Assembly: GCA_046350235.1 (NCBI GenBank)
Contig: JAXMAT010000015.1
Coordinates: 14,171-78,170, forward strand
Origin: Gemmataceae bacterium
GTDB taxonomy: Bacteria; Planctomycetota; Planctomycetia; Gemmatales; Gemmataceae
DNA length: 64,000 bases
Direction: 5' to 3'
Shown: positions 46,276 through 64,000 of the stretch, in pieces
How positions within the stretch are numbered: the first letter of the stretch is position 1
Layout: the number at the start of each line of letters is the position of its first letter
Notes under the pieces: model-generated
What the model saw: only the letters and a program-made list of their open reading frames with translations
Database searches by the model: none
What the model was told of the DNA's origin: nothing
Translations under genes and position numbers: made by a program

Positions 46276-48749
46276 TCAAACGCGTCGGATGCGGCATGCG
46301 AAGCATTTGTAGGCTTGCTGGCCGGAGAGGTTGTCGAAGTAGCGGTCATTCGTCGATTCGTACATCGGCGCACCAAACTCTTAGCCCATTTGCTGCATCG
46401 GGCCGAAGGTGCTGGGGACGAATCGTATCTTGGCGGATGCCTTCCCAGAGGGCGGCGAAGTTTCTGGATGGATCCTTGCCGGGCTTTCGACGATGATTTC
46501 GTCCCCTTCGCGGATGTTGGCTTTCATCGCCGTCTGCGGGTGGACTTGGATCAGTTCCCGTTGAGTTGTTTCCCTGAGTAGGTCCATTGCGTCATCCCGG
46601 CGAAATGAACGACGCTCGGGCGTCCCGTCATGCCCATCAGCGGATACTCGGCGTGGACCGCACCGGTCGAGGCGCCGCCGATACGGGCGCGGGGTGTGGC
46701 GGCGCCGGGGTTGATCGGATTCGTCACCAACTCGTTCGCATGCTCGACCGTCGGATTGCGGCCGGTGACTTCAGGATGCGTGTAGTACGTCGGCAATGCA
46801 GCGTGCCCCGCGGTCGCAAGGCGTTTTTCGATGTCGGCGGTGAACACCTCGGATTTCCCGCTTGGTGTGAGGAACCGCTTCCCCGCGTGGCCCAGAGCGG
46901 CCGCCGCTTCGCGCCAACTCGGATGATCGAGATAAAGCGTGCTGACGCCGGCATGCTTTTCGGTGGGGCAAGGCCAACGCAGCGGCTCCGAACGACGCGA
47001 CATCCGGTCCTGCGTCATGCCCGCCATGCCGGGCGTGTTGGCGACGAAGGTCGCCCAGAGGTTGCGATAGTTTCGCCAGGCCGCGGGAAAGGCATCGGTC
47101 CAGGTCGCGGCTCCGCGCGTGCGGTCCAGCCTTCCAAGTGCATGAGCGAGGTCGATCCAGATTTCCCAGTCGGGCTTCGATTGTCCCACGCGAGGCACGG
47201 CCGCATTCTGCCAGCGGATGCCGCGATCGTCGCGCCGCATGTAGACGCCGTCCATCTCCAGCCCGCTGCACACCGGAAGAATGATGTCTGCGTAGTACGC
47301 ACTTTCCTCCATGAAGAGGCCGGTGTAGGCGTAGAACTCCAGAGCGCGATACGCTTGGCGGACGCGTGTCGTATTCGCGCTGCTCAGAAGCGGGTTGCCC
47401 ATCGTGACCAGCGCTCGCATGCGATAGGGGCGAGCATTCAGGATCGATTCGGCAAACCAATCCGGGCCGACGGGCAATGCCTGTCCCTTTTCCGGAACCT
47501 GAGCCGCGAGGCGTGGGAGATGCAAGTCGCCGGGCCAGGTGTTGTGCATGAAGTTGCACCCGCCGCCGGGCACGCCGATGTTGCCGGTGATGGCGGCGAG
47601 CATGGCGAGGGCGCGGTAGGTGTCGAAGGCGTTCATCTGATGCGAGATGCCGGCGTTGCAGAAGATGGCGGCGGGTTTCGCGCGAGCATACTCTTCCGCC
47701 AAAGTTTCGATCTGCCGAGCAGGCACATCGCACATGCGGGCGGCCCACGCGGGCGTGTAGGCGTTCTTTCGCAGATGCTCCGCGAGTTCGTCGAAACCGA
47801 CCACCCAATCGCGGACGAAAGCCGGGTCATGCAACTTGCGATCGATGATGTGGTAAAGCATGCCCAAGACGAGGGCGAGATCCGTGTGCGGTTTGGGGGC
47901 GATCCACTGATCCGCCTGCGCTCCGGTCGGCGTCCGCCGCGGGTCGATGACGACGAGCTTCGCCTTGGTGCGCGATCGGCATCGCAGAAGATGCGCGAAC
48001 GTCACCGGATGCGTCTCGGCCTGATTCGTTCCGAAGAAGAGGAAGTACCGGGCGCTGCCGAGGTCCTCGCGCCCCGTGGCAGGATCGACGCCATAGCCGT
48101 TCGTGAAATTGCCGAGTCCGAAAGTGGTCGCAAGCGCATTGCCGCCGGCGTCGTTGCACACGGGGCCGACATCCGTGTCGTTGGGGCTGCCGAGCAACGT
48201 GAACATGCGGTGGATCAGCGACCCTGTCCCGCGCGGCAGTCGGCCGGAGGTTCGGCTGACGATCGCCTTCGCATCGCCCGCCTCGCGCAGCTCCAACATT
48301 TTCCGCGCGATCCGTTCGAGGGCTTCATCCCATGTGATGGGTTCGAATCGGGACTGCGGATCTCCCTTGTCGCCGCCGATCCGCTTGAGGGGCCGGGTCA
48401 GGCGGAAGCGGTTGTAGACCAACTGCGGCATCATGCCCGCCTTGACGCAGAGTTCCCCCGCCTGCACCGGATCGTTCGGCTCGCCGCGTACATCAATAAC
48501 ACGGCCCGCGAAGATGTACCCGCAGACCGCAGAGGAATTGCAGAACTGACAGGCACTGGTGACGACGCGATCCGGCTGCAATGCGGCCGACTGCTGCGTG
48601 AAATCGATACGCGCCGATTCGGCGGCGGCGGGAGCCGGATCAGCGCCGTGACCGGTGCCGGGCATCATGCCGAGTACCGCCACGCTGCTTCCCAGAGCGA
48701 CTCCCTGAATGACATCGCGGCGATTCGGAGCGGAGGAAGTGGAGCTCAT
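46276..48749 (-). pseudogene. Tat-exported molybdopterin oxidoreductase (MopB superfamily) with a disrupted C-terminal domain
   Basis: The 739 aa ORF from ATG 48749 has the Tat motif 'NRRDVIQGVALGSSVAVLG' and the 4Fe-4S motif 'CQFCNSSAVCGY...C'. The molybdopterin-dinucleotide-binding tail continues only after a frameshift at ~46555 ('RELIQVHPQTAMKANIREGDEIIVES'). It then has an in-frame TAA (46381-46383) before '..EFGAPMYESTNDRYFDNLSGQQAYKCFACRIRRV*'. Confidence 0.7.
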
Positions 48750-49054
48750 ATCGACATACCGCCGAAGCAATGAGTAGGAGAGCCTCCACGTTCATGGAGG
48801 CACGACATCATGACATCTGGGCAACTGTTTGCGTAAGTTTCGAGTATTTCACAACATGCGTTCAGAATCAAGAAGATTGTGGCTCAGTTGACGGATTCCT
48901 AAGGAACAATTCAACTTCCGATCATTTGGTTTATGCGGCTTTCTATCGGATTTTACGTTTGAACAGAGCAAATCTCGCCGAATGGAGTTGGGAAAACACT
49001 CCGATATTCGAACAACACCGAACGTCGCCCGATGTTTACCGGAATGGAACTCCG

Positions 49055-50047
49055 ATGAAAGTCTGCCGATGGATCCTCGTACGTGGGGCGACGGCAGTGG
49101 TTTTGACGTTGGGAATTGCTCAAGGGATCGCCCAGGCACAGACCGCTCCTGATGAAATCCCAGCGATTGCGGTGGAAGCGACGCCTGAGCGTGCGCGGTA
49201 CTCTCTCCTTGAAACCATCGCGCTGTCGATCTTCAACAAGCGTGCCCCCAAGCGGGAATGGACGCCGCTCTACGCGGACACATTCTTTTCGGAGGGGTGG
49301 TTCGAACCGCACATCGGGCCTCCTCCCGGCACCGGCGGGTCGGTACGGCAGGGCTGGATCGGAGTGCCGGAAGCGTTCTTCAATCGGCAGATTGTAGGCA
49401 TCTACAGCCAGAAGCACGGCGTGAACGGCGGGACAAACGAAACGATAGGCGGGACCATTCTCGAATCTCCGATGAACCGACGCTACGACTTCGGCGTACT
49501 GGTCCCCTTCGCGGATTCGATTTCTGACAAAGCGGGCCAGCAGAATACGGGAGTCGGCGATACGTTGTTCTTCAACCGTTTCCTTGTCCATGAAACGGCA
49601 GACCTTTCGGTCTCCTTCAACTGCAACGTGCTCGCTCCGACCGGATCGCGCGCCTACGGCAACCAGCGGACTTCGGTAATTCCCTACGTCGCGTTCTACA
49701 AGGATCTGCAGCGTGGTTTCTCGTTCCGCGGCGCCGGCGGAGCCGACGTTCCGGTGGATGACCGGCCCGATGGACGCACTTCGTCGATCTTCGGCAGTCT
49801 CGCCGCGGGCCAGACCTTGACGCCGCACGACACGCCGATCGTGGGCGACTTCACGTATTATCTCTGCGCCAACATCGTGCAGGACTTCGGGACGGGAAAC
49901 AACCACAATGCCCAACTCAGTCTGACTCCCGGCATTCGTACCCATCTTGGCCGCAACTGGTTCTTTCTCGCCGGCATCGCAGTCCCAGTGACGGGGCTGA
50001 AGCAGTATGACGAGCGTTACACCTTCGTTCTGGTCAAGGGCTTCTGA
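49055..50047 (+). CDS. Putative outer-membrane beta-barrel protein
   Basis: 330 aa from ATG 49055. Signal peptide MKVCRWILVRGATAVVLTLGIAQGIAQA. Alternating beta-strand pattern. The C-terminus '...YTFVLVKGF' ends in Phe. Confidence 0.55.
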   Translation: MKVCRWILVRGATAVVLTLGIAQGIAQAQTAPDEIPAIAVEATPERARYSLLETIALSIFNKRAPKREWTPLYADTFFSEGWFEPHIGPPPGTGGSVRQGWIGVPEAFFNRQIVGIYSQKHGVNGGTNETIGGTILESPMNRRYDFGVLVPFADSISDKAGQQNTGVGDTLFFNRFLVHETADLSVSFNCNVLAPTGSRAYGNQRTSVIPYVAFYKDLQRGFSFRGAGGADVPVDDRPDGRTSSIFGSLAAGQTLTPHDTPIVGDFTYYLCANIVQDFGTGNNHNAQLSLTPGIRTHLGRNWFFLAGIAVPVTGLKQYDERYTFVLVKGF

Positions 50048-50144: not shown

Positions 50145-50405
50145 TTACGTCAGGCCCCTAAGGGCGCATCCAGAATCGATTCGGCGACAATGGGGCCAAC
50201 CGGCAAGCCTGCCCCGGGCCAGGTGTTGTGCATGAAGTTGCACCCGCCGCCGGGCGGCCGGTGATGGAGGCGAACATGGCGAGGGCCGGGAAGGAGCCGG
50301 CCGGAGATTTGGGCGCAGGAGGCTTCCGGAACACCGAGCGAACAAACCGCCGCCGATCACTGCTCCTTTGAGAAGTTTCCTCCGATCCGTCGAAAACGAA
50401 TCCAT
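50145..50405 (-). pseudogene. Remnant of a second molybdopterin oxidoreductase paralog
   Basis: A Tat-like leader 'MDSFSTDRRKLLKGAVIGGGLFA' is joined to sequence homologous to 47430-47610 of the neighbouring gene. This includes the identical run CCAGGTGTTGTGCATGAAGTTGCACCCGCCGCCGGGC. Internal deletions are present. Confidence 0.55.
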
Positions 50406-50474: not shown

Positions 50475-50789
50475 TCAGTCAAACGAAACCCGGAGGCCGC
50501 ACTCAGGAATGCGAAGAGTCGTCCCTGTTTTATCCGAATCGTGTCTGACGGTTGGGCTCAGGGAGTAATAAACGAATCGCCCGGACTTCTTCTTCACCAG
50601 AATGCGAGCCTTGCAAAGGATGCCAAGGTGATGAAATACGTTGATCGGATTCGTACCAATCTGCTCAGCCAACTCGGAAGGCGTGCAGGGGCTGGCGCTG
50701 ACGATCTCAACGATATGAAGTCGCTCTGGGGCGGAGAGCGCCTTGAACGTTTCCGCCCAGGCGGTGTGAAAATCGTTGATTCGAGCCAT
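50475..50789 (-). CDS. ArsR/SmtB family transcriptional regulator
   Basis: 104 aa from ATG 50789. 'FKALSAPERLHIVEIVSASPCTPSELAEQIGTNPINVFHHLGILCKARILVKKKSGRFVYYSL' is a winged HTH. The track's 383 aa extension is antisense to the EF-hand gene. Confidence 0.85.
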   Translation of the reverse strand: MARINDFHTAWAETFKALSAPERLHIVEIVSASPCTPSELAEQIGTNPINVFHHLGILCKARILVKKKSGRFVYYSLSPTVRHDSDKTGTTLRIPECGLRVSFD

Positions 50790-50812
50790 AGCGCTCAACC
50801 TCAAGCGGAAAC

Positions 50813-52108
50813 TCATCGCGGGCGAAACGCGGTGGATTCCGAAGGGGAAATCAGTCCGTTTTTGTCGGCGTCCATGGACCGGAAGAGGCTTAGAGGACCA
50901 AGAAACTCCCGCTCGCTCACCATGCCATCTCCATTTGCGTCCATGGCGCGGAACCATTCGGGAGCTTGTTCCGCATGCTTTGCCTGCGGCGTGGAGCGGA
51001 CGTTTTTGGACAGCGGGACGCCGCCGAAGTCCGCCCATCGGGGCTGTTCCATCTGAAGGACTGCAAATCGAGGCGCCCGACCGCCAGGGGTGGAAGCAAC
51101 CAAGCCTCGCCCCGCGAGCATCTCGGAAGCAGTCCATCGGCCGTCTTGGTTTGCATCGAGCACTGGGAAGAAATTCAAGCCGTGATCGTTCACCGCGATC
51201 GCCGTCTGCGAATTCGCGGCAAGCCGAGCAAGGTCGAAGTACTCTTCCAATTCGCGGCGAGTCAGCACTCCATCGCCATTCCGATCCGCATAGTTGGTGA
51301 TGGCCGCCAGCGCGCTTTGATCGACGTCGTTTTCCAAATCCCGGATCGCCACCTGGCTGCCGTCTTTCGCTGCCTCCTCGAACTGCGACAACAGGAACCC
51401 GCGTCCACTCTTGGAGGCGTCGCGAGGCGACTGTCGACGCAAGGCGACGACCCACTCGCCGCCCGCAAGTACCGCGCAGCCTTGCCGAAAGGAAATACCT
51501 TCCAGCTTCGGTTCGATCCGAACGCCGGCAGCATCGAGGCTCAACATCGGCAACGATGAGTCGTGAACGGTCTCGACGATCTTCGCCTTTTCCGCAGATT
51601 TCCCCGCGGCACGTACCGCCTTCCATTCGGCTTCGTCAATCGTTTCGTTGTCGTCCGAGTCCAGAAGTCGCATGACACGGGATAGATCCCACTTTCCATC
51701 GCGTTGAGCGTTTTTTCGCAACCATTCCGCCGTGCCGACGTCCTCGGTCGAAGGTCCGCTGATTCGCACCAGAAGCGGGCGAAACCCTGCGTCATACACC
51801 TGCTTCTTGAATGTCTCGGGCGTGAGCTTGGCTGCTTTTGCGGAAGCACGGTATTTGCCGCTGGGGAGCGGAAGCGGCGGCATACGCGCGGCTTCTTCCA
51901 CATCGAGTAGGCCGTCTTGGTTACGGTCGAATTGGACGAACCACTTGTCGAGAAATGCAGCCCATCGCGACTGGGGCAACGACGCATCGTGAGGCAGACG
52001 CACGGCGACACGGAAGGGGCCAGGCGAACCGGCGAACTCTAACGCGACATCCTGACCTGCCGCGTTCGCGGCCATCAACAAGCAAACTGCGACGGCCCCA
52101 CGCATCAT
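50813..52108 (-). CDS. Secreted multi-EF-hand calcium-binding protein
   Basis: 431 aa from ATG 52108 (MMRGAVAVCLLMAANAAGQ). Six EF-hand-like loops: DRNQDGLLDVEE, DSDDNETIDEAE, DRNGDGVLTRRE, DANQDGRWTASE, DANGDGMVSERE and DADKNGLISPSE. The start overlaps the DUF1501 stop. Confidence 0.8.
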   Translation of the reverse strand: MMRGAVAVCLLMAANAAGQDVALEFAGSPGPFRVAVRLPHDASLPQSRWAAFLDKWFVQFDRNQDGLLDVEEAARMPPLPLPSGKYRASAKAAKLTPETFKKQVYDAGFRPLLVRISGPSTEDVGTAEWLRKNAQRDGKWDLSRVMRLLDSDDNETIDEAEWKAVRAAGKSAEKAKIVETVHDSSLPMLSLDAAGVRIEPKLEGISFRQGCAVLAGGEWVVALRRQSPRDASKSGRGFLLSQFEEAAKDGSQVAIRDLENDVDQSALAAITNYADRNGDGVLTRRELEEYFDLARLAANSQTAIAVNDHGLNFFPVLDANQDGRWTASEMLAGRGLVASTPGGRAPRFAVLQMEQPRWADFGGVPLSKNVRSTPQAKHAEQAPEWFRAMDANGDGMVSEREFLGPLSLFRSMDADKNGLISPSESTAFRPR

Positions 52109-53391
52109 GCGAGCACCTCCCGGATGGGTTGGGCGTCCGGATCGGCGAGGCGGATGGGGCGATTGACTTGCGACATGTTTTGCTTGCGCGGATCGAGGCC
52201 CATCGCGAGCAGGATGGTGGCGAAGAGGTCGGGGACATGCACTGGGCGATCTTCTACCGCGATGCCGCTGGCGCCGGTGCGGCCCACGACCTGTCCGCCG
52301 CGGATGCCACCGCCTCCGAGCACCACGCTCCACGCCGCTGGATAATGGTCGCGGCCATTACGCGGATTGATCCCCGGCGTGCGGCCGAATTCGCCCATCC
52401 AGACGATGAGCGTATCGTCGAGCAGTCCGCGCTCGGCGAGGTCCGCCATCAGCGTGCCCCATGCAGGATCAAGCGTGTTGCTCAGTGTTTGCACTTGCTC
52501 GAAGTTGTTGTCGTGCGTGTCCCATCCGCCGAGGTTCACTTCGATGAAAGGCGTGCCGCGCTCGACGAGTCGCCGAGCCATGAGGCAACCTTGGCCGAAG
52601 GCGTTGCGGCCATAGCGATCGCGGAGCGACGCGGACTCGCGCGACAAGTCGAACGCCTGCGCGGCTGCGGGGCTGCCCAGGCGCGACGCACGATCGTAGG
52701 CCGTGACATGGCTCGCGGTGCCGATGCCGGGGCGGCTGGCGAGAAAAGGCGCCTCCATCTCGCGGAGCAGCGAACGACGGTCGGCCATGCGATCGGCGGA
52801 CGCGGCGAGCGGCTTCAGGTCTTCGACCGCGAGGTTCCCGCCCGACGCATTAACGATGACCGGAGCGGAGCGGGGGCCGAGAAAACCCGCAGCCACCGAG
52901 GGCGATGCGAATGCTCCGCCCGGCATGACGCTGACGAAGCCGGGCAGATCGCGCTCGGCCGATTCGCATTCGTTCGCCACCAGCGAGCCGAGCGTGGGAT
53001 AGCGGATCGGGCCCTGGGTGACGTACCCCGTGCGAAGGTGGGCGGTCGCTCGGCCGTGGTCCCCCTCCTTCGTCTTCATCGACCGCACGACCGCAAGATG
53101 CGACATCTGTCGAGCGACTTGCGGGAGATGTTCGGAGATGCGGATGCCGGGAACCGCGGTCGCGATTTCGCGAAAGGGGCCGCCGTTGGCGTGGTTCGGC
53201 TTGAGATCGAAGGTATCCGTTTGGCTCGGCCCGCCCGACATCCAGAGGAGGATGCAAGAGCGACGGCGCGATGCATCGCCGACGGCATGGGCAGCGAGCG
53301 GCGCGAACAGCGAGGCTCCGCCCATGCCGAGCATCGAACCGAGCCAACCGCGCCGTGTCCAAGAGCGAGCCGTGTTCATTGCCGGGTCCAT
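52105..53391 (-). CDS. DUF1501 domain protein (Tat-exported)
   Basis: 428 aa and intact. 'WTRRGWLGSMLGMGGASLF', 'CILLWMSGGPSQTDTFDLKP', 'GWDTHDNNF' and 'GRDHYP'. Confidence 0.9.
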   Translation of the reverse strand: MDPAMNTARSWTRRGWLGSMLGMGGASLFAPLAAHAVGDASRRRSCILLWMSGGPSQTDTFDLKPNHANGGPFREIATAVPGIRISEHLPQVARQMSHLAVVRSMKTKEGDHGRATAHLRTGYVTQGPIRYPTLGSLVANECESAERDLPGFVSVMPGGAFASPSVAAGFLGPRSAPVIVNASGGNLAVEDLKPLAASADRMADRRSLLREMEAPFLASRPGIGTASHVTAYDRASRLGSPAAAQAFDLSRESASLRDRYGRNAFGQGCLMARRLVERGTPFIEVNLGGWDTHDNNFEQVQTLSNTLDPAWGTLMADLAERGLLDDTLIVWMGEFGRTPGINPRNGRDHYPAAWSVVLGGGGIRGGQVVGRTGASGIAVEDRPVHVPDLFATILLAMGLDPRKQNMSQVNRPIRLADPDAQPIREVLA

Positions 53392-53394
53392 GCG

Positions 53395-54952
53395 TTAGTG
53401 GTTGAGGCGAAATTCCGCACTGTTGAGCAGGGTCCAGAAAATGTCGGCCAGCCGTTCGGCTTCGCGGTCAGTGCCGCCGAGACGAACGAACGCTTCGAGC
53501 CGGGCTGCCTCGTCCGCGGACGGTTTGCGGGTCAGCGTGGCGAGATAAAGCGTCCCGATACGCTCCGCGAGCGAGAGGCCGGGCGTCTTCGTCGCGGCGA
53601 TCATCGTAGGCGAGTTTTCCGGGTCCGTCGCCCAGCCGACGAACCGTCCATTCTGCAGCGTGAGCGCCTGCTGGACCGAAGTTTCCGGTTCATCCAGCGG
53701 GCTGGTCAGCGCGAAGCGAGCGAGGAACTGCCGACGAAATCCGCCCTTATCCTGGTCGTCGCGATAGCCGGTGGCGAGGGCGAGACTATCGAACCATTGC
53801 TCGCCGGAGAGGGCCTTGACCGCCATGCGAGCCGGCAGCTTCGTCTCATCCTGGCTTGGGTGCGTGCGGCCGCTGGAGCGTTGATACGCTCCGGTCCCGG
53901 CGAGGGGCGCGGATGAGAAATCGCAGATCGAAGTCCGCGGCAATCAACGTCTCGGCGAGGTAATCGAGCAACTCGGGATGCGACGGCGGATTGTCGTCGC
54001 GGAAATCGTCCGCGGGGCTCACGATGCCTCGGCCGAACAGGCGTTCCCAGATGCGATTCGCCGTCGCTTTCGCGAAGAAGGGATTCTTCGGCGACGTCAT
54101 CCACTCCGCTGAACAATGCGCGCGGCGGAGTCTTGTCGCCAGGCGGGTGTTGCTTTGTCGAGGAAGATGGCCGAGCGCGATTTCTTCGAGCCTGGATCGA
54201 CGATGTCGCGCCGCGAAACGGTTTCGCTCAGCGGCGCGAAGATCCGATTGCCCCCCTGCCGATCGATGCTCGCGAAGAATGCAGCCTGGTTCCAGAATTG
54301 TTCCTGCGTCCACGCGGCGAAAGGATGATCATGGCACTGGGCGCATTCGAGGCGAACGCCCAGAAACGATCGCGTGACCGCGGCGGCGAGATTTTCCGGC
54401 TTCGCATCCTTTGCCGCGTAAACGCCAGCGCGGGTTGGGGCGCGCGGTGATCGCGCAACACGGCGACAGCCGACGACGATTGCGTGGGCAGCGGAACCGA
54501 AAGCAACTCGCGACCCAACGATGCGATCGTAACCGACGCCCGAGCGAGCCGCTCGGTCAGCCACGCTTCGAATCCTTGTCGCAGAATTCCCGCCTGCGGA
54601 TCGCTGGTCGTCTCCGGCACAAGCTCCGCACGCCAGACCTGCGCGAAATGTCCCGCGAAACGCGGCTCACGCAACAGGTTACCAATGAGGCGAGTGCGCT
54701 CGTCGGGCGAACGATCTTCGAGAAACGCATGCCTTCCGAATGCGCGGGATGCGGCCCGCGAGATCGAGGTAGGGCGCGGGCGCAGAAACTCCGCATCGTC
54801 CGCCTTCGGGGCCGGAGTGATTTTCTCCGCCTTCCATATATGTTCCAGTGCCGCATCGATCCGCTTGGGCGACGACACTGCACGTCGGGCGGCTCGGCCG
54901 AGGCGCGAGCCGCATGCGACAGGATCAGGAGGACGACTGCAATGTTCCGCAT
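53395..54952 (-). pseudogene. DUF1549/DUF1553 protein, decayed and shortened (several frameshifts)
   Basis: Consecutive pieces sit in different frames. In order: the signal peptide 'MRNIAVVLLILSHAARASA' (ATG 54952), 'IDAALEHIWKAEKITPAPKADDAEFLR', 'LREPRFAGHFAQVWRAELV', 'CAQCHDHPFAAWTQEQFWNQAAFFA', 'FFAKATANRIWERLFGRGIVSPADDFRDDNPPSHPELLDYLA' and '...FWTLLNSAEFRLNH*'. Confidence 0.75.
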
Positions 54953-54960
54953 GGCGTCCC

Positions 54961-55952
54961 TCAGGCGATGAAGGCGAATTGGTCGGCGGCGGGGCCGAGG
55001 CGAATCTGTTCCGCCTGCTCGGCGAGACCGCAATCTGCTCGCCGCGTCGATAGGTCATGCCGTCGTCGTCCGTGATTTCCTCATACGGACCTTTGTAGAC
55101 GACCTTCACGAATGGCCACGCTCCGCCGGACGGTTTCCACGCGACCATCTGCATCTCGTGCAGCTCGACGCCGCCCACGCTGAAGCAATGGATGTCGCCC
55201 AGCTTGTCGCAGAAGACGCCCGCGAACCCGGCCGCGCAATAAGAGAAGCGGTTCCGTCTCGACAGGGATGCGTTGCACGATCGACGCCATACCCGGCAGC
55301 TTCGGCGTGCCGGTGGCTTGTCGCCCACGAGGGCGTGTACCGCGAGTCGCCCGCCTGGTTGCAGCACGCGCAACACTTCGCGGAGCAACTCCGGCATCCG
55401 TGTCGCGGCGATCGTGGCATTGAACGAACCTTCGAGCCGCACTTCGTCGAGAGCCCCGTCCTGAACTCGAGGCGATCCGGCCAGGCGTCGGCGATCTTGT
55501 GCTCCCATGCATGCGCCGGTGGCGTCGGGGCGGCTGTCGAGGAGCATCGTCGAAGCCGGAGTGTTCGATGTCTTCGTGGAGCGTGTAGAGTCCGACATCA
55601 CCTGGTCGGGATCGGTGACCCAAAACTTGGTTTGCCGCGAGTAGCAGCACTCGACGCCTTCCTGGCGTTGGGTCGCGATCCCCGCTTCTTCCAGGCGGCG
55701 CTGCATGGCGACGAGCGTCTCGGTATCGGGGACGCGCACGCCGACATGGTTGAGGGCCCCTCCCGGTTGCCGCGGCGCGGGATAGAGGACGAGGACCAGC
55801 GGCGGAGATGCGATCTCAAATTTCGCGACTTCCGGATGATCGCGCTTCGGTTCGATGCCGAAGAGCGTGCGATAGAAGCGAACTGCCCGCGCAATGTCGG
55901 ACGTATGCAGGCCGATGTGAAACGCGGTAGTCGCAGTCGCTGTGCTCGTCAT
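54961..55952 (-). pseudogene. ArsI/CadI-type VOC domain fused to a methyltransferase-like module, copy 1 (at least 4 frameshifts)
   Basis: 'FHIGLHTSDIARAVRFYRTLFGIEP..NHVGVRV..GVECCYSRQTKFWVTDPD' carries the vicinal Cys-Cys. Later pieces sit in other frames: 'GDVGLYTLHEDIEHSGF', 'AWEHKI', 'ALDEVRLEGSFNA..VLQPGGRLAVHALVGD', 'TPKLPGMASIV', 'AAGFAGVFCDKL..HEMQMVAWKP..VVYKGPYEE' and '..AEQAEQIRLGPAADQFAFIA*'. Confidence 0.7.
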
Positions 55953-56025
55953 GTCGTGTCTCCTGGCTGCGACCAACAAGAGTCGCGCACGCAGTAAGCG
56001 GATGCTCTTAACGCCTCGCAACCGC

Positions 56026-57084
56026 TTACTGCGTGCGCGGCTCCTCCGCACGCGGCTTCGCTGGCCTGAAGAACAGGAACTGCTCGGCGGATGGTCCATG
56101 GCGGAGTTGGCGCCATACGCTCGCGGGAACCGTCGTCCGCTCGCCTCGGCGGAAAACGCGGGCCCCTTCGATCCACACCTGGGCGAAGGGACCTTTGTAG
56201 AGCACCATGCGATCCGCTTCGCCCGCGGCATCCGGCTGTTTCCACGCGGCGAACTTCATTTCGCGCAGGCCGATGGTTTCGTGAGTGAACCACGGCTTCT
56301 CCGTGAGCTTCGTCGCATGCAAGTTGACGAAACCCGCCTTCGCAAGCTGTTCATAGACGACGATCCGCGCGGGGACGAACGACACCATCGAGGCGAGGCC
56401 GGGCAGCTTCGGTTGCGTCGTGAGCGGAGCGTCGCTGATGAGACCGTGTACCGTCACCTTGCCCGCCGGCTTGAGGACGCGCTTCGCCTCGGCGAGTACG
56501 GCATCGATGTGAGCCGCATCGCTTCCGGCGTTGAACGTGCCCGTCAGCCACACCTCATCGAGCGACGCATCGGCATACGGCGCCGGGATCGCGTCGGCGT
56601 TGACTAGCGAATGTTCCCAGATGCGAGGCGCTGCGATCGGGGTCGTCGCCTGCGCGACCACGCCTTCGAGCGAACGGCGGACGACGACGGGATCGACTTC
56701 CTCTTCGACCCAGTAGACTTCCCAGAAATTGCCGTCCGGATCGCGGGTCCAGATTTTGTCTTTGCGGGCGAAGCTGCACACGGTGCCGTTCTACCTTTCG
56801 GTGCAGATGCCGGCCGCGTTCAGTCGTTCGCCGAAGGCGGTGACCGCATCACGGCTGCCGACGCGAAACCCGAGATGGCTGAGCGATCCACCCTGGCTCG
56901 GCGGACGCGGGGTGAGCGAAAACACGACCGGCGGATCTTCCAACTCGAACTTCGCATAGTCCGCATGGCATTTCGCCGGATCGATGCCGAACAACGTGCG
57001 GTAGTACGCAATCGCCATCTCCAGACTGGAGACGTTGAGCGAAAGGTGGAACTTCGAGACTTCCGGTTCCGCGGGAACGTTCAT
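56026..57084 (-). pseudogene. ArsI/CadI-type VOC domain fused to a methyltransferase-like module, copy 2 (single in-frame TAG)
   Basis: The 130 aa and 251 aa ORFs share one frame and are separated only by TAG 56791-56793: '..AAGICTER*NGTVCSFARKDKIWTRDPDGNFWEVYW..'. The stop aligns with Gln in copy 1 ('IATQRQEGVECCY'). Confidence 0.75.
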
Positions 57085-57094
57085 GGCATTCTCC

Positions 57095-58381
57095 TCACGA
57101 AACGGTTGACTCGGGAGCGGACACGTCCGGGGCATGCGGCTCGCGCACGAACCAACACAACACCGCCAAGACGACTGCCGCAAGGCCGCATACGAAGAAG
57201 AACGGATCGGGCGAGTCGGTTAGCAGCCGCGATTGTACCAGGAGCCATGGGCCGACCGCGGAAAAGAGGACGGAGATCACCTGCACCGTCCCCTGGATCG
57301 ATCCCATGTGTTTCTTGCCGAACGCATGGCGGAAGATGGCGAAGAAGACGACGGTGATGACGCCCCCCGAGATGCCCATCGCCGCGCCGTAAGCGACCGC
57401 ACCCGCTTGCGTCAGGATCTAGGGGAAACCCGCCAACGAGGTCGCGAGGACCGCCATGCCGATGCCGAGCAGCTTGCTCATGGACCATCGCTGCGAAAGC
57501 CAGCCCGCGAAGATGTTGGCAGGCAGGCCGGTGAAGACGAGCACGCCCATCACCAGGATGAACACGCTTCGGCTCAGGCCGTGATCGAGCAGCAGCGTTT
57601 CGTTGAACAGCGTCACCGCGGACCAAACGAGGTTGAACAGACCGACGCCAAACGCCCAGACCCAGAAAGCGGGAGTGGCGAGCGCCTGACCGAGCGTCGC
57701 ATCCGCGACGAGACGATCCGGGTCGCGTTCGTCGGCAATGTCGGCCGATTCCTTCGCATCGTTGCGAGAGAGGAGCCACGCGAGCGGCGCCATCCCGGCG
57801 ATGAGAAGCCAGCCCAGGCCGCTCCAAGCATGTCGCCATCCCATCTCGCCGACGGCATACCCGAGGCCGAGCGTGCTCGCCATGAAGCCGATCGAGAGGA
57901 GGATGGTGAAGACGCCCATGGCGATGCCTACGCGTCGCGAGAACGACTTGCCGACAAGGGCGATACTGGCGACGGAAAGCGATCCCTGACCCAAGCCGCG
58001 GACGAGGATGAGCGCAGCCAGAAAGACGACGGCGGAAGGTGCGAATCCCATCGCCAGCACGGCGAGCCCGAGGCCGAGAGAGATCGCACCGGTCACGAAA
58101 CGTGGGCCGATCCGGTCGAGCAGCCAACCGACCGGAACGACCATCGTCGAGCCGATGAGAATCGCCAATAAGTTGTAGACGGCGAAATCCGATTCGGAGA
58201 TGCCGAGACCGGCATCATCGATCACCGGCTTGGTGATCATCCCGAGCCCATGCGTCCGCCCCGGCAAGGTCGCCGTCATCGCCGTCGCGGCAATGACGAC
58301 GTTGAGCCAGCGAAACACCGCCGGCAATGCCGGAGCGTTTGAAGCCTTCCAGACCGGGCTCGTCTGAATTGCGGTAGACAT
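57095..58381 (-). pseudogene. MFS transporter with an in-frame TAG
   Basis: The 320 aa ORF ends '..LATSLAGFP*' at TAG 57419-57421. The same frame continues 'ILTQAGAVAYGAAMGISGGVITVVFFAIF...', the remaining C-terminal TM helices, down to 57095. Confidence 0.75.
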
Positions 58382-58391
58382 GTCGTTTCGC

Positions 58392-58841
58392 TCAAGGCAA
58401 TTCGATCGGCGGCAGATCTTTTCCGCTCTTCACTTCCATGCGAATCTTCGAGTTCTTGACGTTCGAGAACGCCTCATTGAGTCGATCTCGTGGATCGGTA
58501 TCGAGCGGGCTCTTCTTCGCCATTGGCCAACGCACGGTCACGACATACTCGCCTTCGGGGGCTCCGTCCCCTTCGCGGTAGGTCGTGAGCGAATAGCGGC
58601 CCGATTCATCGGTGATGCCGATCGGCTTGTGCGAATCGCCAGGTTCGGTCTTCGCAGGGTGAAAAATCACCGCGGCACCGGCAGCGGGTTTCTTGTCCTT
58701 GCCGGAAACGACCTGACCCTTTACCTGCACCGTGGCATGCTTGCCGTCGGAACAACCCGAGAGCAGCGCACATGCAACCCACGTCAGCAGGAGGGCGCCG
58801 TTCGCGAGAAACGGCGCACGGGATTTCCATGTTGGATTCAT
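58392..58841 (-). CDS. Lipoprotein with a carboxypeptidase-regulatory-like beta-sandwich
   Basis: Start at ATG 58841. Lipobox 'ALLSGC'. 'VKGQVVSGKDKKPAAGAAVIFHP...DESGRYSLTTY...GEYVVTV'. Confidence 0.7.
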   Translation of the reverse strand: MNPTWKSRAPFLANGALLLTWVACALLSGCSDGKHATVQVKGQVVSGKDKKPAAGAAVIFHPAKTEPGDSHKPIGITDESGRYSLTTYREGDGAPEGEYVVTVRWPMAKKSPLDTDPRDRLNEAFSNVKNSKIRMEVKSGKDLPPIELP

Positions 58842-58869
58842 GGTTTCGGATTTCCTATTTGCATTTCGG

Positions 58870-59838
58870 TTATTCGGAGGCCCGCACTTCGCCACCTGCT
58901 TTGGTCACCATGGCGGCGAGGACATTGATGTCCGTGCCGGAGGTGACGAAGCGGACGGAACCGTCGCAGAAGAGCACATTCGCTCCGCCTGCGTGAAACG
59001 AATAGAGGCCTTGTGCGTTATTGGCGTTGATGCCGACGGTGCCGAAGCTTCCGGACCCATCGCCCGCCGAACCGTAGAAGGATTGGTTGCCGCTCAACGC
59101 ATCAGCCCATCCGCCGAGTGCGAATTGCAGGTAGCTGATCTTGGTGTTCGTGTTGGCCGCGCCCTTATAAAGCATGTGGCGACCGGCGGATTCCACGAGA
59201 AGGAACGTGTTGCTAGTTCCGTCAGTGATCGCAAGGATCGATGTTTTGACATCCGGCTGCAGAGCGCCGCTGAGCGACCCGGTGGCGGTTGGCGTGGTCA
59301 AAGACGCGTTCAAGGAGGAACCCACAGCCTTAAGAGGGATATAGTCGGCGATGGAGCAAGTCACGGTGGGGAAGGGCCCGGGCACGCCGAACATGCTGTA
59401 GTCGTAGGTTTCCGTGTACGTGTCGGGCGAAAGCGAAGAGGGGCAACGCATCACCGGAATCTTCGTCGCGGAAACCGTGGCGTTCGTCGCCGGCGCAGTT
59501 CCGGTCGTGTCATAGTAGTTTTTCTTAACGTCGTAGTTGTTGTAGAGTGCAGTCTGCTCGATGTGCGGAAGCAGGAAAAGCCCCCAGCCAGTGGAAACGG
59601 AACTGGTCGGGGGTTGAGTGGAAATCGGTGGGAACATCGATTTGTTGCTCGACGCGTAGCCGTGGTAGGCGACGCCGAATTGCTTGAGATTGTTTTGGCA
59701 CTGTGCCCGTGCCGCGGCGTCGCGGACCTTCTGCACCGCGGGCACCAAGAGGGCGATAAGGATCGCAATGATCGCGATGACGACGAGCAATTCGATGAGC
59801 GTGAATCCGCGACGAGCGCGGGACAGGAAGCGGGCCAT
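58870..59838 (-). CDS. DUF1559 protein with prepilin-type N-terminal cleavage/methylation motif
   Basis: '[45 protein letters not shown]', a 'DGTSNT' motif, and C-terminal '[15 protein letters not shown]'. Confidence 0.9.
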
Positions 59839-59881
59839 GGTTGGCTCCAAAAGCGTGAACAGGCGGGATCGAAACAGGCGA

Positions 59882-61129
59882 CTAGCGGGCAGGAGGGAGT
59901 TCGAGGCAGATCAGCTCCTTGTCGTCGCGAACAAGCAGCCGACCCTGGGCGAGGGCGGGATTGACGAGTGTGCCGTTGCAGACTTTGGCACGCGCCAGTT
60001 CCTTGGCGCCGGAGGCATCCGCCTCGTACAGAAACAGTCGTCCTGAATCGTTGAGCGCGAGCAGCTTGCCGTCGCCGGTCTTGATGAGACCGACATGGAA
60101 ATAGCCCACGCTTTTGCTCCACAGCTTTTTCCCGGATTCCGCTTCCACTGCGGTGATGAATGCATTCGGAATCGGCTCGACGGCGTTCGTCACGAGGAAC
60201 AGGTTTTTCCCTGCCGCGACGCCCGACGAGAAGTAACTTTTCGCTCCCTTGTTCTGCCATTCCTCGCGAGTTTCGAGGTGGTCGCCGTTGGTCTCTTTCA
60301 CGCTGACGGCCACTGCGCCATGAGCCTGCGTGCTCGCGACGACATGGTTGCCGACGATGCAGGGCGTCGGCGAAGTGCCGGCAGTTTGGAACGCCATCGC
60401 ATGCTCCCAGCGGAGCGTGCCATCGATCGGATTGAGGCCGACCAGCCGCAACGGCGTCATGAAGACGACATCGGGGAGCGTTCCCTTGCTCCGGAAAAGG
60501 ACCGGCGAGGACGTGCTTGCCGCGTCGTCGAGCGCTTGCCAGGCGACATCGCCGCTTTCGACATCGAGCCCGATGACGCAGCGCCCTTTGCCGCCCACGC
60601 TCACGATCACGCGATTGCCCACGACAAGCGGCGAGCCGCAGACGGCGAAGTTCGGCAGATCCGCCTTGAACTCCTTGTAGAGGTCTTTCTGCCAGCGTCG
60701 TTTTCCGGTGTCGGCGTCATAGACAGTGAGCACGCCGTTGATGCCCATCGTGAAGAGCCGTTTGCCGGCCACCGTCGGTGTGGCGCGGGGCCCGGTGCCG
60801 AGCACGCTCTTGTAGGCTGGCCGAGCGTAGCTGTCGCTCCACAGTACCTTGCCGTCTTCGAGCGAATAGGCGACGACTTCTTCCTCTTCCTTGCTGGCGT
60901 CTTTGCTGCGAGTGTGCAGATAGACTCGGCCATTCGCGACGATCGGCATGCTGAAGCCGTTGCCGACCTCCGCTTTCCAGACGACTTTGAGATCTCCCTT
61001 CCACGGTGCCACAGTCTCGGCGGTCGCGCCGTCCCGCTTGAGACCGAGCCATTGCGGCCAGTCCGCGGCCCAGCCTTGAGGCGTAAAGCAGGTGGTGACC
61101 GCGAGCGCGAGCAATAATCGAAGTTTCAT
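59882..61129 (-). CDS. Secreted PQQ-like beta-propeller repeat protein
   Basis: 415 aa. Signal peptide [21 protein letters not shown]. Repeated '..G.V.A.D..TGK..W' blades. Confidence 0.85.
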
Positions 61130-61138
61130 GGCGAATCC

Positions 61139-61945
61139 TCAGGCGAAGTACGTGTTGGTCTTACCGTACTCCGCATACTTCTTGCGAAGCCAGGGAATAA
61201 ACTCGCCGTAGTGAATATCTCGAAGGTCCCCATCCGAAGCCGCGTTGTAGCTCGCATAGAGCAAACGCCGCCAGTTCGACGACCGATTGGGCTCCGAGCG
61301 ATGCGGCGTGAAGCATCCGAAAAACGCCACGTCGCCCGGTTCGAGTTCGAGCGGAACTGCCTTCGCCTCATCCACCGTCTCGCGCGGCAACGGATGGTAT
61401 TCGCCATCCTCCGGCGTCAGGCAGCCCTTCAGGTGATACCCGGGATATGCGATGGTGCAGCCGTTCTCCAGCGAGCACGGATCGATCGCGATCGCCGCAG
61501 TCATGAACGAGCGGGGAAAGTTAGGCCAAGAGATGAAATCCTGATGCAGGTCGTACCCCGTCGCCCCCGGCGGCTTGAAGATGAGCTTGTCCTTGAAGAG
61601 CTTGGCTGGTTCGCCGTAAAGCTGTTCGAGAATCGCAAACAACTTGGGATGCAGGGCAATCTCCCGGCACGCTGGCGACAGATCGATGACCGGATCAAAC
61701 GTCTCGAACACGCATTCGCCGTCGGTGCAGCGATTCTGCCAACGGCACCGAAGGTTGCGGGTATCGATCAGGTCCTTGCGTACAACGAGCCCTTCCGCGT
61801 CGGCCGCCACATTCGCGATCTCGTCAGCATCAAAGACGCCGCGAACGACGAGAAAGCCGTCCTCCGCGAATCGGCGGACGTTGATGGTGACGGAGTTCGA
61901 TGCAGGGGCGGCTGCAATCACGAGAAGACCTCGATGATATGACAT
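61139..61945 (-). CDS. Phytanoyl-CoA dioxygenase (PhyH) family Fe(II)/2OG oxygenase
   Basis: 'FAEDGFLVVRGVFDADEI', 'YDLHQDF' (HxD) and 'GDVAFFGCFTPHRSEPNRS' (distal His and Arg). I prefer ATG 61945 over the track's start at 62104. Confidence 0.8.
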   Translation of the reverse strand: MSYHRGLLVIAAAPASNSVTINVRRFAEDGFLVVRGVFDADEIANVAADAEGLVVRKDLIDTRNLRCRWQNRCTDGECVFETFDPVIDLSPACREIALHPKLFAILEQLYGEPAKLFKDKLIFKPPGATGYDLHQDFISWPNFPRSFMTAAIAIDPCSLENGCTIAYPGYHLKGCLTPEDGEYHPLPRETVDEAKAVPLELEPGDVAFFGCFTPHRSEPNRSSNWRRLLYASYNAASDGDLRDIHYGEFIPWLRKKYAEYGKTNTYFA

Positions 61946-62151
61946 CTGCCCAGATGTTATACTGTTGCGGCAATGGAGGCAACCAAAAAGCGGCGGCTCA
62001 CTGTTCTGCTGGCTTCCAAACGCGGAAAGAACAATCGCGACTGGTTCGGCAATTCTCTTGGGAAGCAGCCCACAGCCGCTCTCGGTTTGGTTGCGGCTTT
62101 TCAAATTCAGCTTCGAGTACCGTAGACCGTAGACACGAGGGCAGATAGCGC

Positions 62152-62427: not shown

Positions 62428-63679
62428 CTACCCCATCTTCGCCGCCACTTCGGCCGCCCGCCGCAGATCTATGCCCGCGTAATGCAGCGTCATGTTCAGC
62501 GTTCGATGCCCCAGCGTTGCCCGTGCTGCCTCGGCTCCTTGCTCCCGCTCGATAAGCAACGCCGCGGTGTGGCGGAGTTGGTGAGGGTGCTAGTGAGCCG
62601 CACCAGCCTTCTTGCACGCACGGGCAATCGCGCGGGCGTAAGCGGTGGGACCGAATTTCGCCTTAGGCTTTCGTACCGCGCCCCGCTTGCTTCGGTAGAG
62701 TTGCGAGGGCTGCACCGGCGTCTTGCGGGCGGCCCGCTTTGCCGCTTTGATCTCGGCGTCCTGGCGAGCCGGGCTAAAGACGTATTCCTGTGCCGTAACC
62801 GCATCGAGGTGGCGAAGGAGGGCAGCCTGAGCCTTGGGCCCGACAGCGATGGCTCGCACATGGCCGTGGTGGGCAGTCTTGTGGCTGGAGGGCCGGTAGA
62901 TCCAAATCTCTTGCGTTCGCTCGATGTCGCACGGCCGCATGGCACATACCTCTCCGGGCCTGGCTCCCGTTCGCAGTTGAAAGAGGACCATGTCGTGGAT
63001 ATGCGGGGGCAGTTCTTCGAGCGTCTTCTGCACCACATTTGGATCGACGGGCAGAACCGGTTCGGCTTCCCTCGCCCCCCGGCCTCGCTTTATCGGTGCG
63101 ACCGATTGCAGTTCGACGAACTGCATGGGGGGGCGAGCTTCTCGCTGACCGCCCATTTGAACAGAGACCGAATTCGAGAGACATGCTGGTTCACGAGTCG
63201 GCGGCACCAACCGATCGCTTTTTGGTTCTTGGTTCGTGCGTCGCGTTCCTTCGCGGTAAGCCACGATCCAGTAACCATGGCGCGTTGGACTGCTTTCAAT
63301 TCGAGTGGGCCGAAGCTGCTCGCAAGCGTTCCGCCGTAAAGGCGGAGAAACGGAGCGAGAGCAACTTTGAAGTTCCGCTGTTCCGTGGTCGGTGAACCGT
63401 CGTGATCAACGTAATCCGCTTCGAGCTTCTTTTCCGTGAACGAGACGACCAGTTCGTTGACCGTAACATCCGCGCCGCCACCGGGTATGGGCAGCTTGCC
63501 GCCGTTGGTACGGAGCAGGGCAAGCAGACGCTCATACTCGGCGGGCTTTCCGAGGAGTTGAAGAGGCCGGGAAGGAGAACCTCTTTTGAACGGCCAAGGT
63601 GGTCCGAAACCACGATTCTGGCTCGTCCGGTTTGCTTGTGGCGAAGATAGGTAGGGACGGACTTGCGCGGACGCGGCAT
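62428..63679 (-). pseudogene. Tyrosine recombinase / phage-type integrase, decayed (at least 2 frameshifts plus an in-frame TAG)
   Basis: The pieces are 'MPRPRKSVPTYLRHKQTGRARIV' (ATG 63679), 'LGKPAEYERLLALLRTNGG...FKWAVSEKL', and 'LFQLRTGARPGEVCAMR...HKTAHHGHVRAIAVGP...ACKKAGAAH*HPHQLRHTAALLIEREQGAEAARATLGHRTLNMTLHYAGID'. The TAG at 62590-62592 occupies the Trp of the usual 'HWHPHQLRH' box. The R..HxxR..Y catalytic pattern is present. Confidence 0.8.
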
Positions 63680-64000
63680 GGCTTCCTCGAGGTTTTTTGG
63701 AACCTTCCAAGGAATCCTGGCTTCTTGCCGCACTCCCGAACGTCGGGGGGGTAAGGCGTAACCGCTTCAGCAGACAGGACTTAAATCAAGTCGGGGCGAC
63801 CGGCGATTCACATTTCCTGACGAGCTGACGACGCCTAGGCTCTTTTCGCTTGCGATTGCGCAAGTCGAAGTGTTCACGGCAGATTCGTTCTACCGCGCAG
63901 CGGAAGCTGTGACGTTGAAAACGGATTAGCCCGTAGGCAAGACTCAGCCCTCCTCATCGGATTACCTCCGGTTGGGAGTACGAACGATGAACGAAAAGGC

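Follow-up and report, generated by a model that had tools for sequence, protein, structure and literature searches.

The 64,000-nucleotide stretch of DNA analysed here (the window; Gemmataceae bacterium, GenBank assembly GCA_046350235.1, contig JAXMAT010000015.1, positions 14,171 to 78,170) carries two neighbouring minus-strand genes, VOC1 (54961..55952) and VOC2 (56026..57084), each of which joins a vicinal-oxygen-chelate (VOC) domain of the ArsI/CadI type to a methyltransferase-like module, and which lie between genes for a major facilitator superfamily (MFS) transporter and an ArsR-family regulator. What would a bacterium do with such a fusion, and is this copy of it still functional? A first-pass annotation, made from the sequence alone, had answered with a non-canonical, partly decayed unit for the detoxification of metal(loid)s or organoarsenicals. 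The reading that we prefer, though we could as easily see it fail as stand, is that the region holds a degenerate version of a conserved, uncharacterised operon whose intact relatives would import an organoarsenical and cleave its carbon–arsenic (C–As) bond oxidatively.

The fusion proteins

That the N-terminal domains are of the ArsI/CadI type was borne out by both profile and structure comparisons. Against the NCBIfam model NF041414 (ArsI_CadI_VOC; curated cut-off 116 bits) the repaired VOC2 scores 129.9 bits and intact fusion members from three phyla score 116.5–146.2 bits; the N-terminal fragment of VOC1, shortened by the first frameshift in that gene, reaches 112.9 bits. The structure of the C–As lyase TcArsI (5c4p) is matched with an E-value of 6e-21, or of 2.5e-34 when the family profile is used. 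VOC1 and VOC2 each have their own clade of full-length homologues, of about 334 residues (clade 1) and about 352 residues (clade 2), and in both clades the positions of ArsI Gln8, His62 and Glu115 hold His, His and Glu in more than 95% of the proteins; the first residue differs, and all are ligand-competent.

What sets the clades apart is the substrate loop. The equivalent of ArsI Cys96-Cys97 is Cys-Cys in the VOC1 of the window and in all 119 clade-1 proteins, every one of which also has the His-His-Glu triad. Clade 2 keeps the triad and lacks the vicinal pair, with Cys-Gly in 118 of 118 proteins; the Cys-Ser of the window VOC2 is peculiar to it within its clade. The first-pass annotation had remarked on this contrast between Cys-Cys and Cys-Ser and read the residues correctly, but local decay alone does not account for it, the two copies standing for two old paralogue clades (CC versus CG). 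Of 102 copies, 79 have the complete set of His/His/Glu and Cys-Cys-Tyr, as do 65 of the 68 single-copy loci. With its Cys-Cys substrate loop and its ligand-competent triad, the N-domain is predicted to be an ArsI-type dioxygenase that plausibly works like ArsI. The names that automatic annotation gives to such proteins, 'ArsI/CadI family heavy metal resistance metalloenzyme' and 'catechol 2,3-dioxygenase-like', reveal neither the second domain nor the operon around it.

The second domain, the C-module, had been described as methyltransferase-like, lacking the S-adenosylmethionine (SAM)-binding motif I and reminiscent of ArsM. Profile, hhalign and structure searches all agree on the fold and the missing motif, and they allow the likeness to be sharpened: the C-module corresponds to the C-terminal half of an As(III) methyltransferase of the ArsM type. 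Pfam Methyltransf_11 is matched in its second half only (profile positions 43–93 of 95), hence the absence of motif I. ArsM profile matches begin at positions ~135–185, and in the ArsM model NF040538 the C-module matches positions ~185–340 of 356, with E-values down to 3.5e-14. In hhalign against a bona fide ArsM of 283 residues, residues 126–221 were aligned with 95% probability; one arsenic-binding cysteine of ArsM ('SNCVINL') falls opposite an invariant Gly and the second falls in a gap, and no cysteine of the C-module is conserved across both clades.

Structure models gave the same picture. AlphaFold (AF2) models were used for the full-length clade-1 protein of Limnoglobus (predicted local distance difference test score, pLDDT, 87.5) and for the C-module of the window VOC2 (pLDDT 88.6). 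In a Foldseek search of the PDB with the C-module model the top 13 hits were all ArsM/AS3MT (E-values of ~3e-9 to 5e-8 over ~190–200 columns), whereas non-ArsM methyltransferases were at least 10-fold worse and covered ~150 columns; ArsM/AS3MT chains were also best for the C-terminal part of the full-length model. Since the SAM-binding N-half and both arsenic-binding cysteines are lost, the C-module is, as judged from its sequence, an ArsM remnant that neither binds SAM nor chelates As(III) in the ArsM manner, and so cannot methylate. It probably serves as a substrate-pocket or oligomerisation scaffold. The module is nearly confined to the fusion: searched for on its own, it returned 371 representatives at the 50% clustering level, almost all with the same architecture.

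A conserved operon

The term non-canonical had implied a one-off arrangement, but the fusion turned out to belong to a broad family. When species-representative genomes were scanned, at least 563 loci came to light, in the Planctomycetota, where the carriers are Gemmatales, Pirellulales and Planctomycetales, and in the Verrucomicrobiota and Acidobacteriota. The neighbourhood is conserved in relatives as well. Of 63 distinct loci with enough upstream sequence, 57 have an MFS gene on the upstream side of the fusion and 56 have there a gene for a PhyH-family Fe(II)/2-oxoglutarate dioxygenase, a partner that the first-pass annotation had missed; both are present in 52. DUF1559 is found upstream in 36 of these loci, and an ArsR gene within ~6 kb in 31, which makes the linkage to ArsR a recurrent one. 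The fusions form a tandem pair in 12, invariably with the Cys-Gly copy first and the Cys-Cys copy second. The conserved context is a TonB-dependent receptor or DUF1559 followed by the PhyH dioxygenase, the MFS protein and the fusion. In a Pfam scan of the 104 immediately flanking open reading frames (ORFs), a same-strand TonB-dependent receptor was the immediate upstream neighbour in 12 loci, ArsR was found in 12 loci, and cobW-type metallochaperone genes flanked three. At one locus (L005) a divergent arsR-arsM-MIP unit adjoins the operon, and its ArsM scores 287 bits against NF008823 (cut-off 263).

The ancestral fusion is the form that keeps the His-His-Glu triad and the vicinal Cys-Cys; the Cys-Gly paralogue, like the tandem layout, goes back to a duplication limited to some planctomycete lineages (Gemmatales-type and a few others), which have apparently also recruited PQQ, PSCyt2/PSD1, DUF1501 and EF-hand genes. 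The window cluster is of this kind. Seven genes had been recognised at first, and all seven stand, but the cluster has eleven (50475–61942), with four further genes of the same strand upstream (58392–58841, 58870–59850, 59882–61129 and 61139–61942). The full order is PhyH, PQQ, DUF1559, a 149-residue ORF, MFS, VOC2, VOC1, PSCyt2/PSD1, DUF1501, EF-hand and ArsR, and it matches that in Limnoglobus, in Zavarzinella and in a contig from the Joint Genome Institute (JGI). The peptides quoted in the first-pass annotation are all present where it placed them, and its gene order and spacing are essentially right; a gap given as 9 nt, from the stop of VOC1 to the start of PSCyt2/PSD1, is in fact 8 nt.

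The two core partners bear on the direction of transport and on the chemistry. The window PhyH gene (61139..61942, minus strand, as are all of the cluster genes; apparently intact, start codon uncertain) scores 119.5 bits against Pfam PF05721, for which the cut-off is 22, and the motifs HxD...H and RR..Y.SY are conserved across 65 aligned homologues. Cysteines recur in the cluster PhyH proteins (65 loci), that of the motif 'N.RCR' in at least 90% of members and further ones in at least 50%. The MFS protein had been called an exporter, but by its scores it is not a recognised exporter of arsenicals: ArsK (NF033733) gives 20.3 bits against a cut-off of 400, and an identity with ArsK or ArsJ was rejected on score. 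ArsQ of the arsinothricin cluster is a GntP-type permease and not an MFS protein. The cluster MFS protein comes closest to SfMCT, a lactate transporter of the lactate/oxalate-formate MFS group (96 bits, cut-off 320). In 12 loci a TonB-dependent receptor is encoded upstream on the same strand, which speaks for uptake and catabolism and not for efflux.

These partners could, on the other hand, serve a substrate free of arsenic. The operon might scavenge a small organophosphonate or another organic anion as a nutrient, the TonB receptor and the MFS protein importing it, a PhnY*-like PhyH protein hydroxylating it and the VOC domain cleaving it, with the arsenic features no more than ancestry. The best named relative of the PhyH protein is indeed the methylphosphonate hydroxylase PhnY* (NF052437; 95.4 bits, E = 3.8e-27 for the orthologue at L005), and it was in a planctomycete that the oxidative pathway for methylphosphonate was discovered (PMC6581173). 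The nearest relatives of the MFS protein are lactate and oxalate/formate carriers, TonB receptors imply uptake, one contig has a gene for a phosphonate-binding protein close to the cluster, and the Fos enzymes, which bind phosphonates, also belong to the VOC superfamily. The PhnY* match nevertheless misses its cut-off of 500 bits by a wide margin, neither the Cys-Cys of 65/68 single-copy enzymes nor the three-cysteine regulator described below is needed for phosphonates, and neither a Pho-type regulator nor phn genes recurred in the scan of flanking genes. We give this explanation only a slim chance.

The regulator and a candidate operator

The ArsR/SmtB regulator gene of the window (50475..50816, with its start at 50816, in an ATGA overlap, or at 50789) passes the cut-off of NF033788 (61.3 bits against 55) and belongs to a cluster-specific subfamily. 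Of 38 ArsR hits across the loci and the window, the 36 that are cluster-linked proteins have in common an N-terminal Cys (..CAE.L.AL..) and, at the C-terminus, the motif 'LDLGCCRLE(I/V)P'; L020:6499, L058:6525 and L075:11205 are examples. In the window protein Trp replaces the N-terminal Cys and PECG replaces GCC, leaving one of the three cysteines. In characterised ArsRs three-cysteine sites are As(III) sensors, and the two-cysteine site is that of SpArsR, selective for methylarsenite, MAs(III) (PMC11868830). The cysteine positions of the cluster ArsR match none of the site types described there (R773, Af, Cg, Ar and Sp), and the subfamily possibly represents a new type of sensor site.

Direct reading of the minus strand revealed an inverted repeat at the cluster head, just upstream of PhyH (61937..61958), ATAACATCT-GGGC-AGATGTCAT, a candidate operator or promoter element. 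Related elements of ~30 nt, GTAACATCTTGWC-N4-GGGCAGRTGTCA, lie between a divergent arsR and the first operon gene at several Gemmatales loci (L017, L020, L055 and L058); the candidate ArsR operator element can also be written GTAACATCTT...GGGCAGATGTCA. A search with the strict palindrome pattern gave an operon-head match in the window and at L058 only, the wider conservation of the element coming from an alignment of six sequences, and we put the palindrome forward as an ArsR operator candidate with due reserve.

A regulator of this family also invites an explanation based on metals. The cluster could be a CadI-type response unit for Cd, Zn or Pb, in which ArsR senses a divalent thiophilic metal, the VOC loop binds the metal or a metal–thiolate, and the TonB receptor and the MFS protein move a chelate. 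NF041414 includes CadI besides ArsI, cysteine-rich ArsR/SmtB sites also bind Cd and Pb (CmtR), and the window ArsR has weak matches to the CmtR and Rv2640c families; the cobW-type genes at three loci and the TonB receptors at 12 would fit as well. Those family matches are, however, far below cut-off (27.7 against 150 bits for CmtR and 25.9 against 155 for Rv2640c), and the second domain of the fusion derives specifically from an arsenite methyltransferase. A dioxygenase triad with a 2-oxoglutarate dioxygenase as its partner implies organic chemistry, not metal buffering, and L005 adjoins an arsR-arsM-MIP unit. We consider a metal-response unit quite improbable. Neither metals nor phosphonates explain why two arsenic-enzyme domains should be joined, or why both the enzyme and the regulator should carry dithiols.

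Decay of the window copy

Lesions were mapped by frameshift-aware alignment to intact homologues together with direct reading of the codons, and they agree with the earlier view of a decayed copy. The MFS pseudogene (57095..58381) lies in a single frame and, aligned to the Limnoglobus MFS protein, proves to be interrupted by an in-frame TAG at 57419–57421 and not by any frameshift. In VOC2 the sole interruption is an in-frame TAG at 56791–56793, where VOC1 has CAG. VOC1, whose closest intact homologue (P0121) is 67% identical, has six frameshifts, near 55591, 55538, 55464, 55306, 55233 and 55024, one of which, a missing base, destroys the codon of the Glu metal ligand. The PSCyt2/PSD1 (DUF1549/DUF1553) gene (53395..54952) has six more, near 54876, 54778, 54744, 54454, 54110 and 53905. 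It had been called a remnant in the sense of a truncation, but orthologues from the same cluster have 514–523 residues, so the gene has the full length of its subfamily.

Substitutions tell a similar story. At the 101 columns conserved in at least 95% of sequences VOC2 departs from its clade 10 times, where the members of that clade do so 1.5 times on average and 9 times at most; VOC1 deviates at 12 of 123 highly conserved columns. P0001 and P0122, two public proteins from a metagenome-assembled genome (MAG; 'MAG: Gemmataceae bacterium'), have exactly the sequences of two ORFs of the window, so the lesions belong to the deposited assembly. With two TAGs, the conserved-column deviations and the cysteine losses in ArsR, it is probable that the loss of function is real, that the MFS gene, both fusions and PSCyt2/PSD1 are pseudogenes and that the sensor site of ArsR has been lost, which would leave the unit non-functional in the source MAG.

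The distribution of the indels weighs against this conclusion. All 12 of them lie within one 1.7-kb block (53905–55591), whereas the pseudogenes adjoining it, VOC2 and MFS, carry nonsense substitutions only, an unevenness that uniform decay fails to explain and that a local assembly fault might. The gene content could then be right and the copy alive, the twelve frameshifts being assembly or consensus errors in a poorly supported stretch. The ~5 kb of flanking cluster genes contain no indel although VOC2 and MFS are also 'dead', a 12:0 split that uniform decay would produce with an estimated probability of ~4e-4, and most of the indels are the loss of a single base. Such a fault would not, however, produce two independent in-frame TAGs outside the block, TAG being an ordinary stop here, nor a VOC2 that is free of indels yet deviant at 10 highly conserved positions, nor the loss by substitution of two of the three conserved ArsR cysteines. 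In addition, long genes elsewhere in the window are uninterrupted, and the indel sites lie outside long homopolymers. We regard a living copy as unlikely.

Reassignment or read-through of TAG was ruled out for the two in-frame codons, TAG terminating 3 of 25 ordinary genes in the window. A window-wide survey of frameshifts with a hidden Markov model (HMM) of GC by codon position was dropped as too coarse at a third-position GC content (GC3) of 0.75; uninterrupted long ORFs elsewhere, and homologue-guided frameshift-aware alignment inside the cluster, were used in its place.

Other loci from Gemmataceae MAGs seem damaged too: at L057 (8128–11000) TGT replaces CGY in VOC2 and the MFS match is short, and at L048 (1215–2250) VOC1 is split into two separate high-scoring segment pairs. 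Limnoglobus roseus (CP042425) carries a tandem Gemmatales-type cluster (L006, ~2.24 Mb) with no adjoining PhyH gene, and, separately, a single-copy DUF1559-MFS-PhyH-fusion operon (L049, ~1.75 Mb). Two operons in one genome could provide the redundancy that explains how one copy can decay.

A proposed function

We suggest organoarsenical uptake and C–As cleavage because the operon brings together the dithiol loop of the VOC domain, an ArsM remnant, a PhyH dioxygenase, a carboxylate-type MFS protein, TonB receptors and a cysteine-rich ArsR. The domain identities, their conservation, the synteny and the lesions are direct observations; from them we infer the substrate, the direction of transport, the order of steps and the role of the C-terminal domain. 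In intact relatives the core would be the PhyH-type Fe(II)/2-oxoglutarate dioxygenase, the MFS permease and the two-domain enzyme, usually preceded by an uptake component of the outer membrane or periplasm, either a TonB-dependent receptor or, in planctomycetes, DUF1559. A small anionic organoarsenical would be imported and then hydroxylated, or otherwise prepared, by PhyH, after which the VOC domain, with a predicted Fe(II)/O2-dependent activity, would cleave the C–As bond; its vicinal Cys-Cys, the counterpart of the loop that holds trivalent organoarsenicals in ArsI, might hold the substrate. The dedicated ArsR-family repressor that is often present, with one N-terminal Cys and a C-terminal Cys-Cys, would release the operon from repression when a trivalent arsenical binds to its three cysteines.

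A bolder version, which we put forward as a long shot, is that the operon encodes an unrecognised pathway for the uptake and breakdown of an environmental organoarsenical, in which PhyH hydroxylates the carbon beside arsenic, the VOC domain completes the C–As cleavage and the ArsM half has been recycled as a substrate-recognition module. Candidate substrates would be dimethylarsinate, other methylated forms or a natural product that contains arsenic.

Several observations count against an organoarsenical function. The first metal ligand is His in the fusions and Gln in ArsI, and the TM-scores of the C-module to ArsM are modest (0.42–0.46, with a root-mean-square deviation of ~7 Å). The nearest named relative of the PhyH protein acts on a phosphonate, the MFS protein resembles carboxylate transporters, and the TonB-dependent uptake of a toxic arsenical offers no obvious benefit. 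Canonical arsB/acr3, arsC and arsH were not recurrent neighbours among the flanking genes scanned, and we know of no activity for CadI, the other named member of NF041414. Literature searches (ArsI fusions; planctomycete arsenic genes; ArsI with PhyH or TonB) returned no description of the fusion or the operon and no characterised member of the fusion family.

If an organoarsenical is nevertheless the substrate, the family would fill a gap. To our knowledge ArsI is the only known C–As lyase, and the steps by which dimethylated organoarsenicals, and more complex ones, are degraded in soil and water have no enzyme assigned to them; we know of none that demethylates or degrades dimethylarsinate, other methylated species or arsenic natural products. 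The fusion family is a concrete candidate for such a missing step, and its ArsM half would then exemplify a catalytic domain recycled as a substrate-recognition module. The copy in the window, a pseudogene cluster, matters only as a pointer to the family.

Other genes in and around the cluster

The PQQ-like beta-propeller protein (59882..61129) is intact, matches Pfam PQQ_2 (1.3e-40) and aligns end to end with its Limnoglobus orthologue with zero frameshifts. Next to it lie an intact gene for a DUF1559/N-methyl pseudopilin-like protein (58870..59850; Pfam SBP_bac_10, 8e-43, and N_methyl) and the gene for a small conserved protein of ~149 residues (58392..58841), for which the Pfam scan gave no match and we know of no family; tblastn connects it with 149-residue genes in the equivalent position at L005, L008 and L004. 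Downstream of PSCyt2/PSD1, the DUF1501 protein (52105..53391; Pfam PF07394, 370.8 bits) is intact, with 66% identity to its Limnoglobus orthologue and no frameshift. Its stop codon overlaps (ATGA) the start of the intact gene for a secreted EF-hand repeat protein (50813..52108), which matches Pfam EF-hand families and has positional orthologues. Frameshifts suggested for the EF-hand gene by the frameshift-aware alignment were dismissed as artefacts of a poorly conserved stretch, the ORF being continuous.

Beyond ArsR lies an 86-residue ORF (50145–50405, minus strand) with an N-terminus, 'RRKLLKGAVIGGG', that resembles a twin-arginine translocation (Tat) signal; it has no Pfam match and may be a fragment. 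It is followed by a plus-strand gene for a Phenol_MetA_deg-like outer-membrane protein (48770–50047), which abuts, on the opposite strand, that of a Tat-signal molybdopterin oxidoreductase of 739 residues (46551–48770, minus strand; best NCBIfam matches Fdh-alpha, at 274 bits, PhsA, NasC and ArrA, all far below cut-off). On the other side, just upstream of the cluster, two overlapping minus-strand ORFs (62590–63710) resemble by eye pieces of a tyrosine recombinase/integrase, and Pfam gave no match for them at 1e-3. No tRNA was found in the 64-kb window.

Comparison with known systems

Among characterised enzymes the closest to the N-domain is the C–As lyase ArsI (Bacillus sp. MD1; Thermomonospora curvata, PDB 5c4p), with which it shares the VOC fold, the family model NF041414, the His and Glu metal ligands and a Cys-Cys-Tyr loop followed by a (Q/R)Q(D/T)K-W motif. 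Unlike ArsI, the fusions have His in place of Gln as the first ligand, an extra ArsM-derived domain of ~200 residues and one clade with a single Cys; whereas ArsI is a single-domain protein of an ars resistance operon, the fusions are two-domain proteins of 334–352 residues with PhyH, MFS, a TonB receptor or DUF1559, and ArsR as neighbours. CadI of M. tuberculosis (Rv2641) falls in the same NCBIfam family and is likewise linked to an ArsR/SmtB regulator, but it is a single-domain protein with Gln as its first ligand, and the cluster regulator lies outside the Rv2640c and CmtR families. The C-module is homologous to ArsM/AS3MT (PDB 4fs8, 6cx6, 5evj and 8xt7) over a stretch that starts near strand 4 of the Rossmann fold and takes in the ArsM-specific C-terminal domain; in contrast to ArsM, it lacks the N-terminal ~125 residues, including SAM motif I, and both central-domain As(III) cysteines are replaced or deleted.

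At the level of the operon, the PhnY*/PhnZ system of Gimesia maris and Prochlorococcus (PMC6581173) likewise combines a PhyH-family hydroxylase, a second oxygenase and a transporter, although its second enzyme is the HD-domain protein PhnZ and not a VOC dioxygenase with a dithiol loop, and the cluster is under ArsR-type regulation. The ArsR sensors R773, AfArsR, CgArsR, SpArsR and ArArsR (PMC11868830) are winged-helix proteins, as is the cluster ArsR, which has three cysteines, two of them forming a vicinal pair close to the C-terminus, a feature that it shares with AfArsR and SpArsR; it differs from them in that one cysteine precedes helix 1 and the other two stand in 'LDLGCC' at the extreme C-terminus. 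By this comparison the fusion is not a canonical ArsI, from which its architecture and the context of its operon set it apart, nor an ArsM, whose SAM site and cysteines it lacks.

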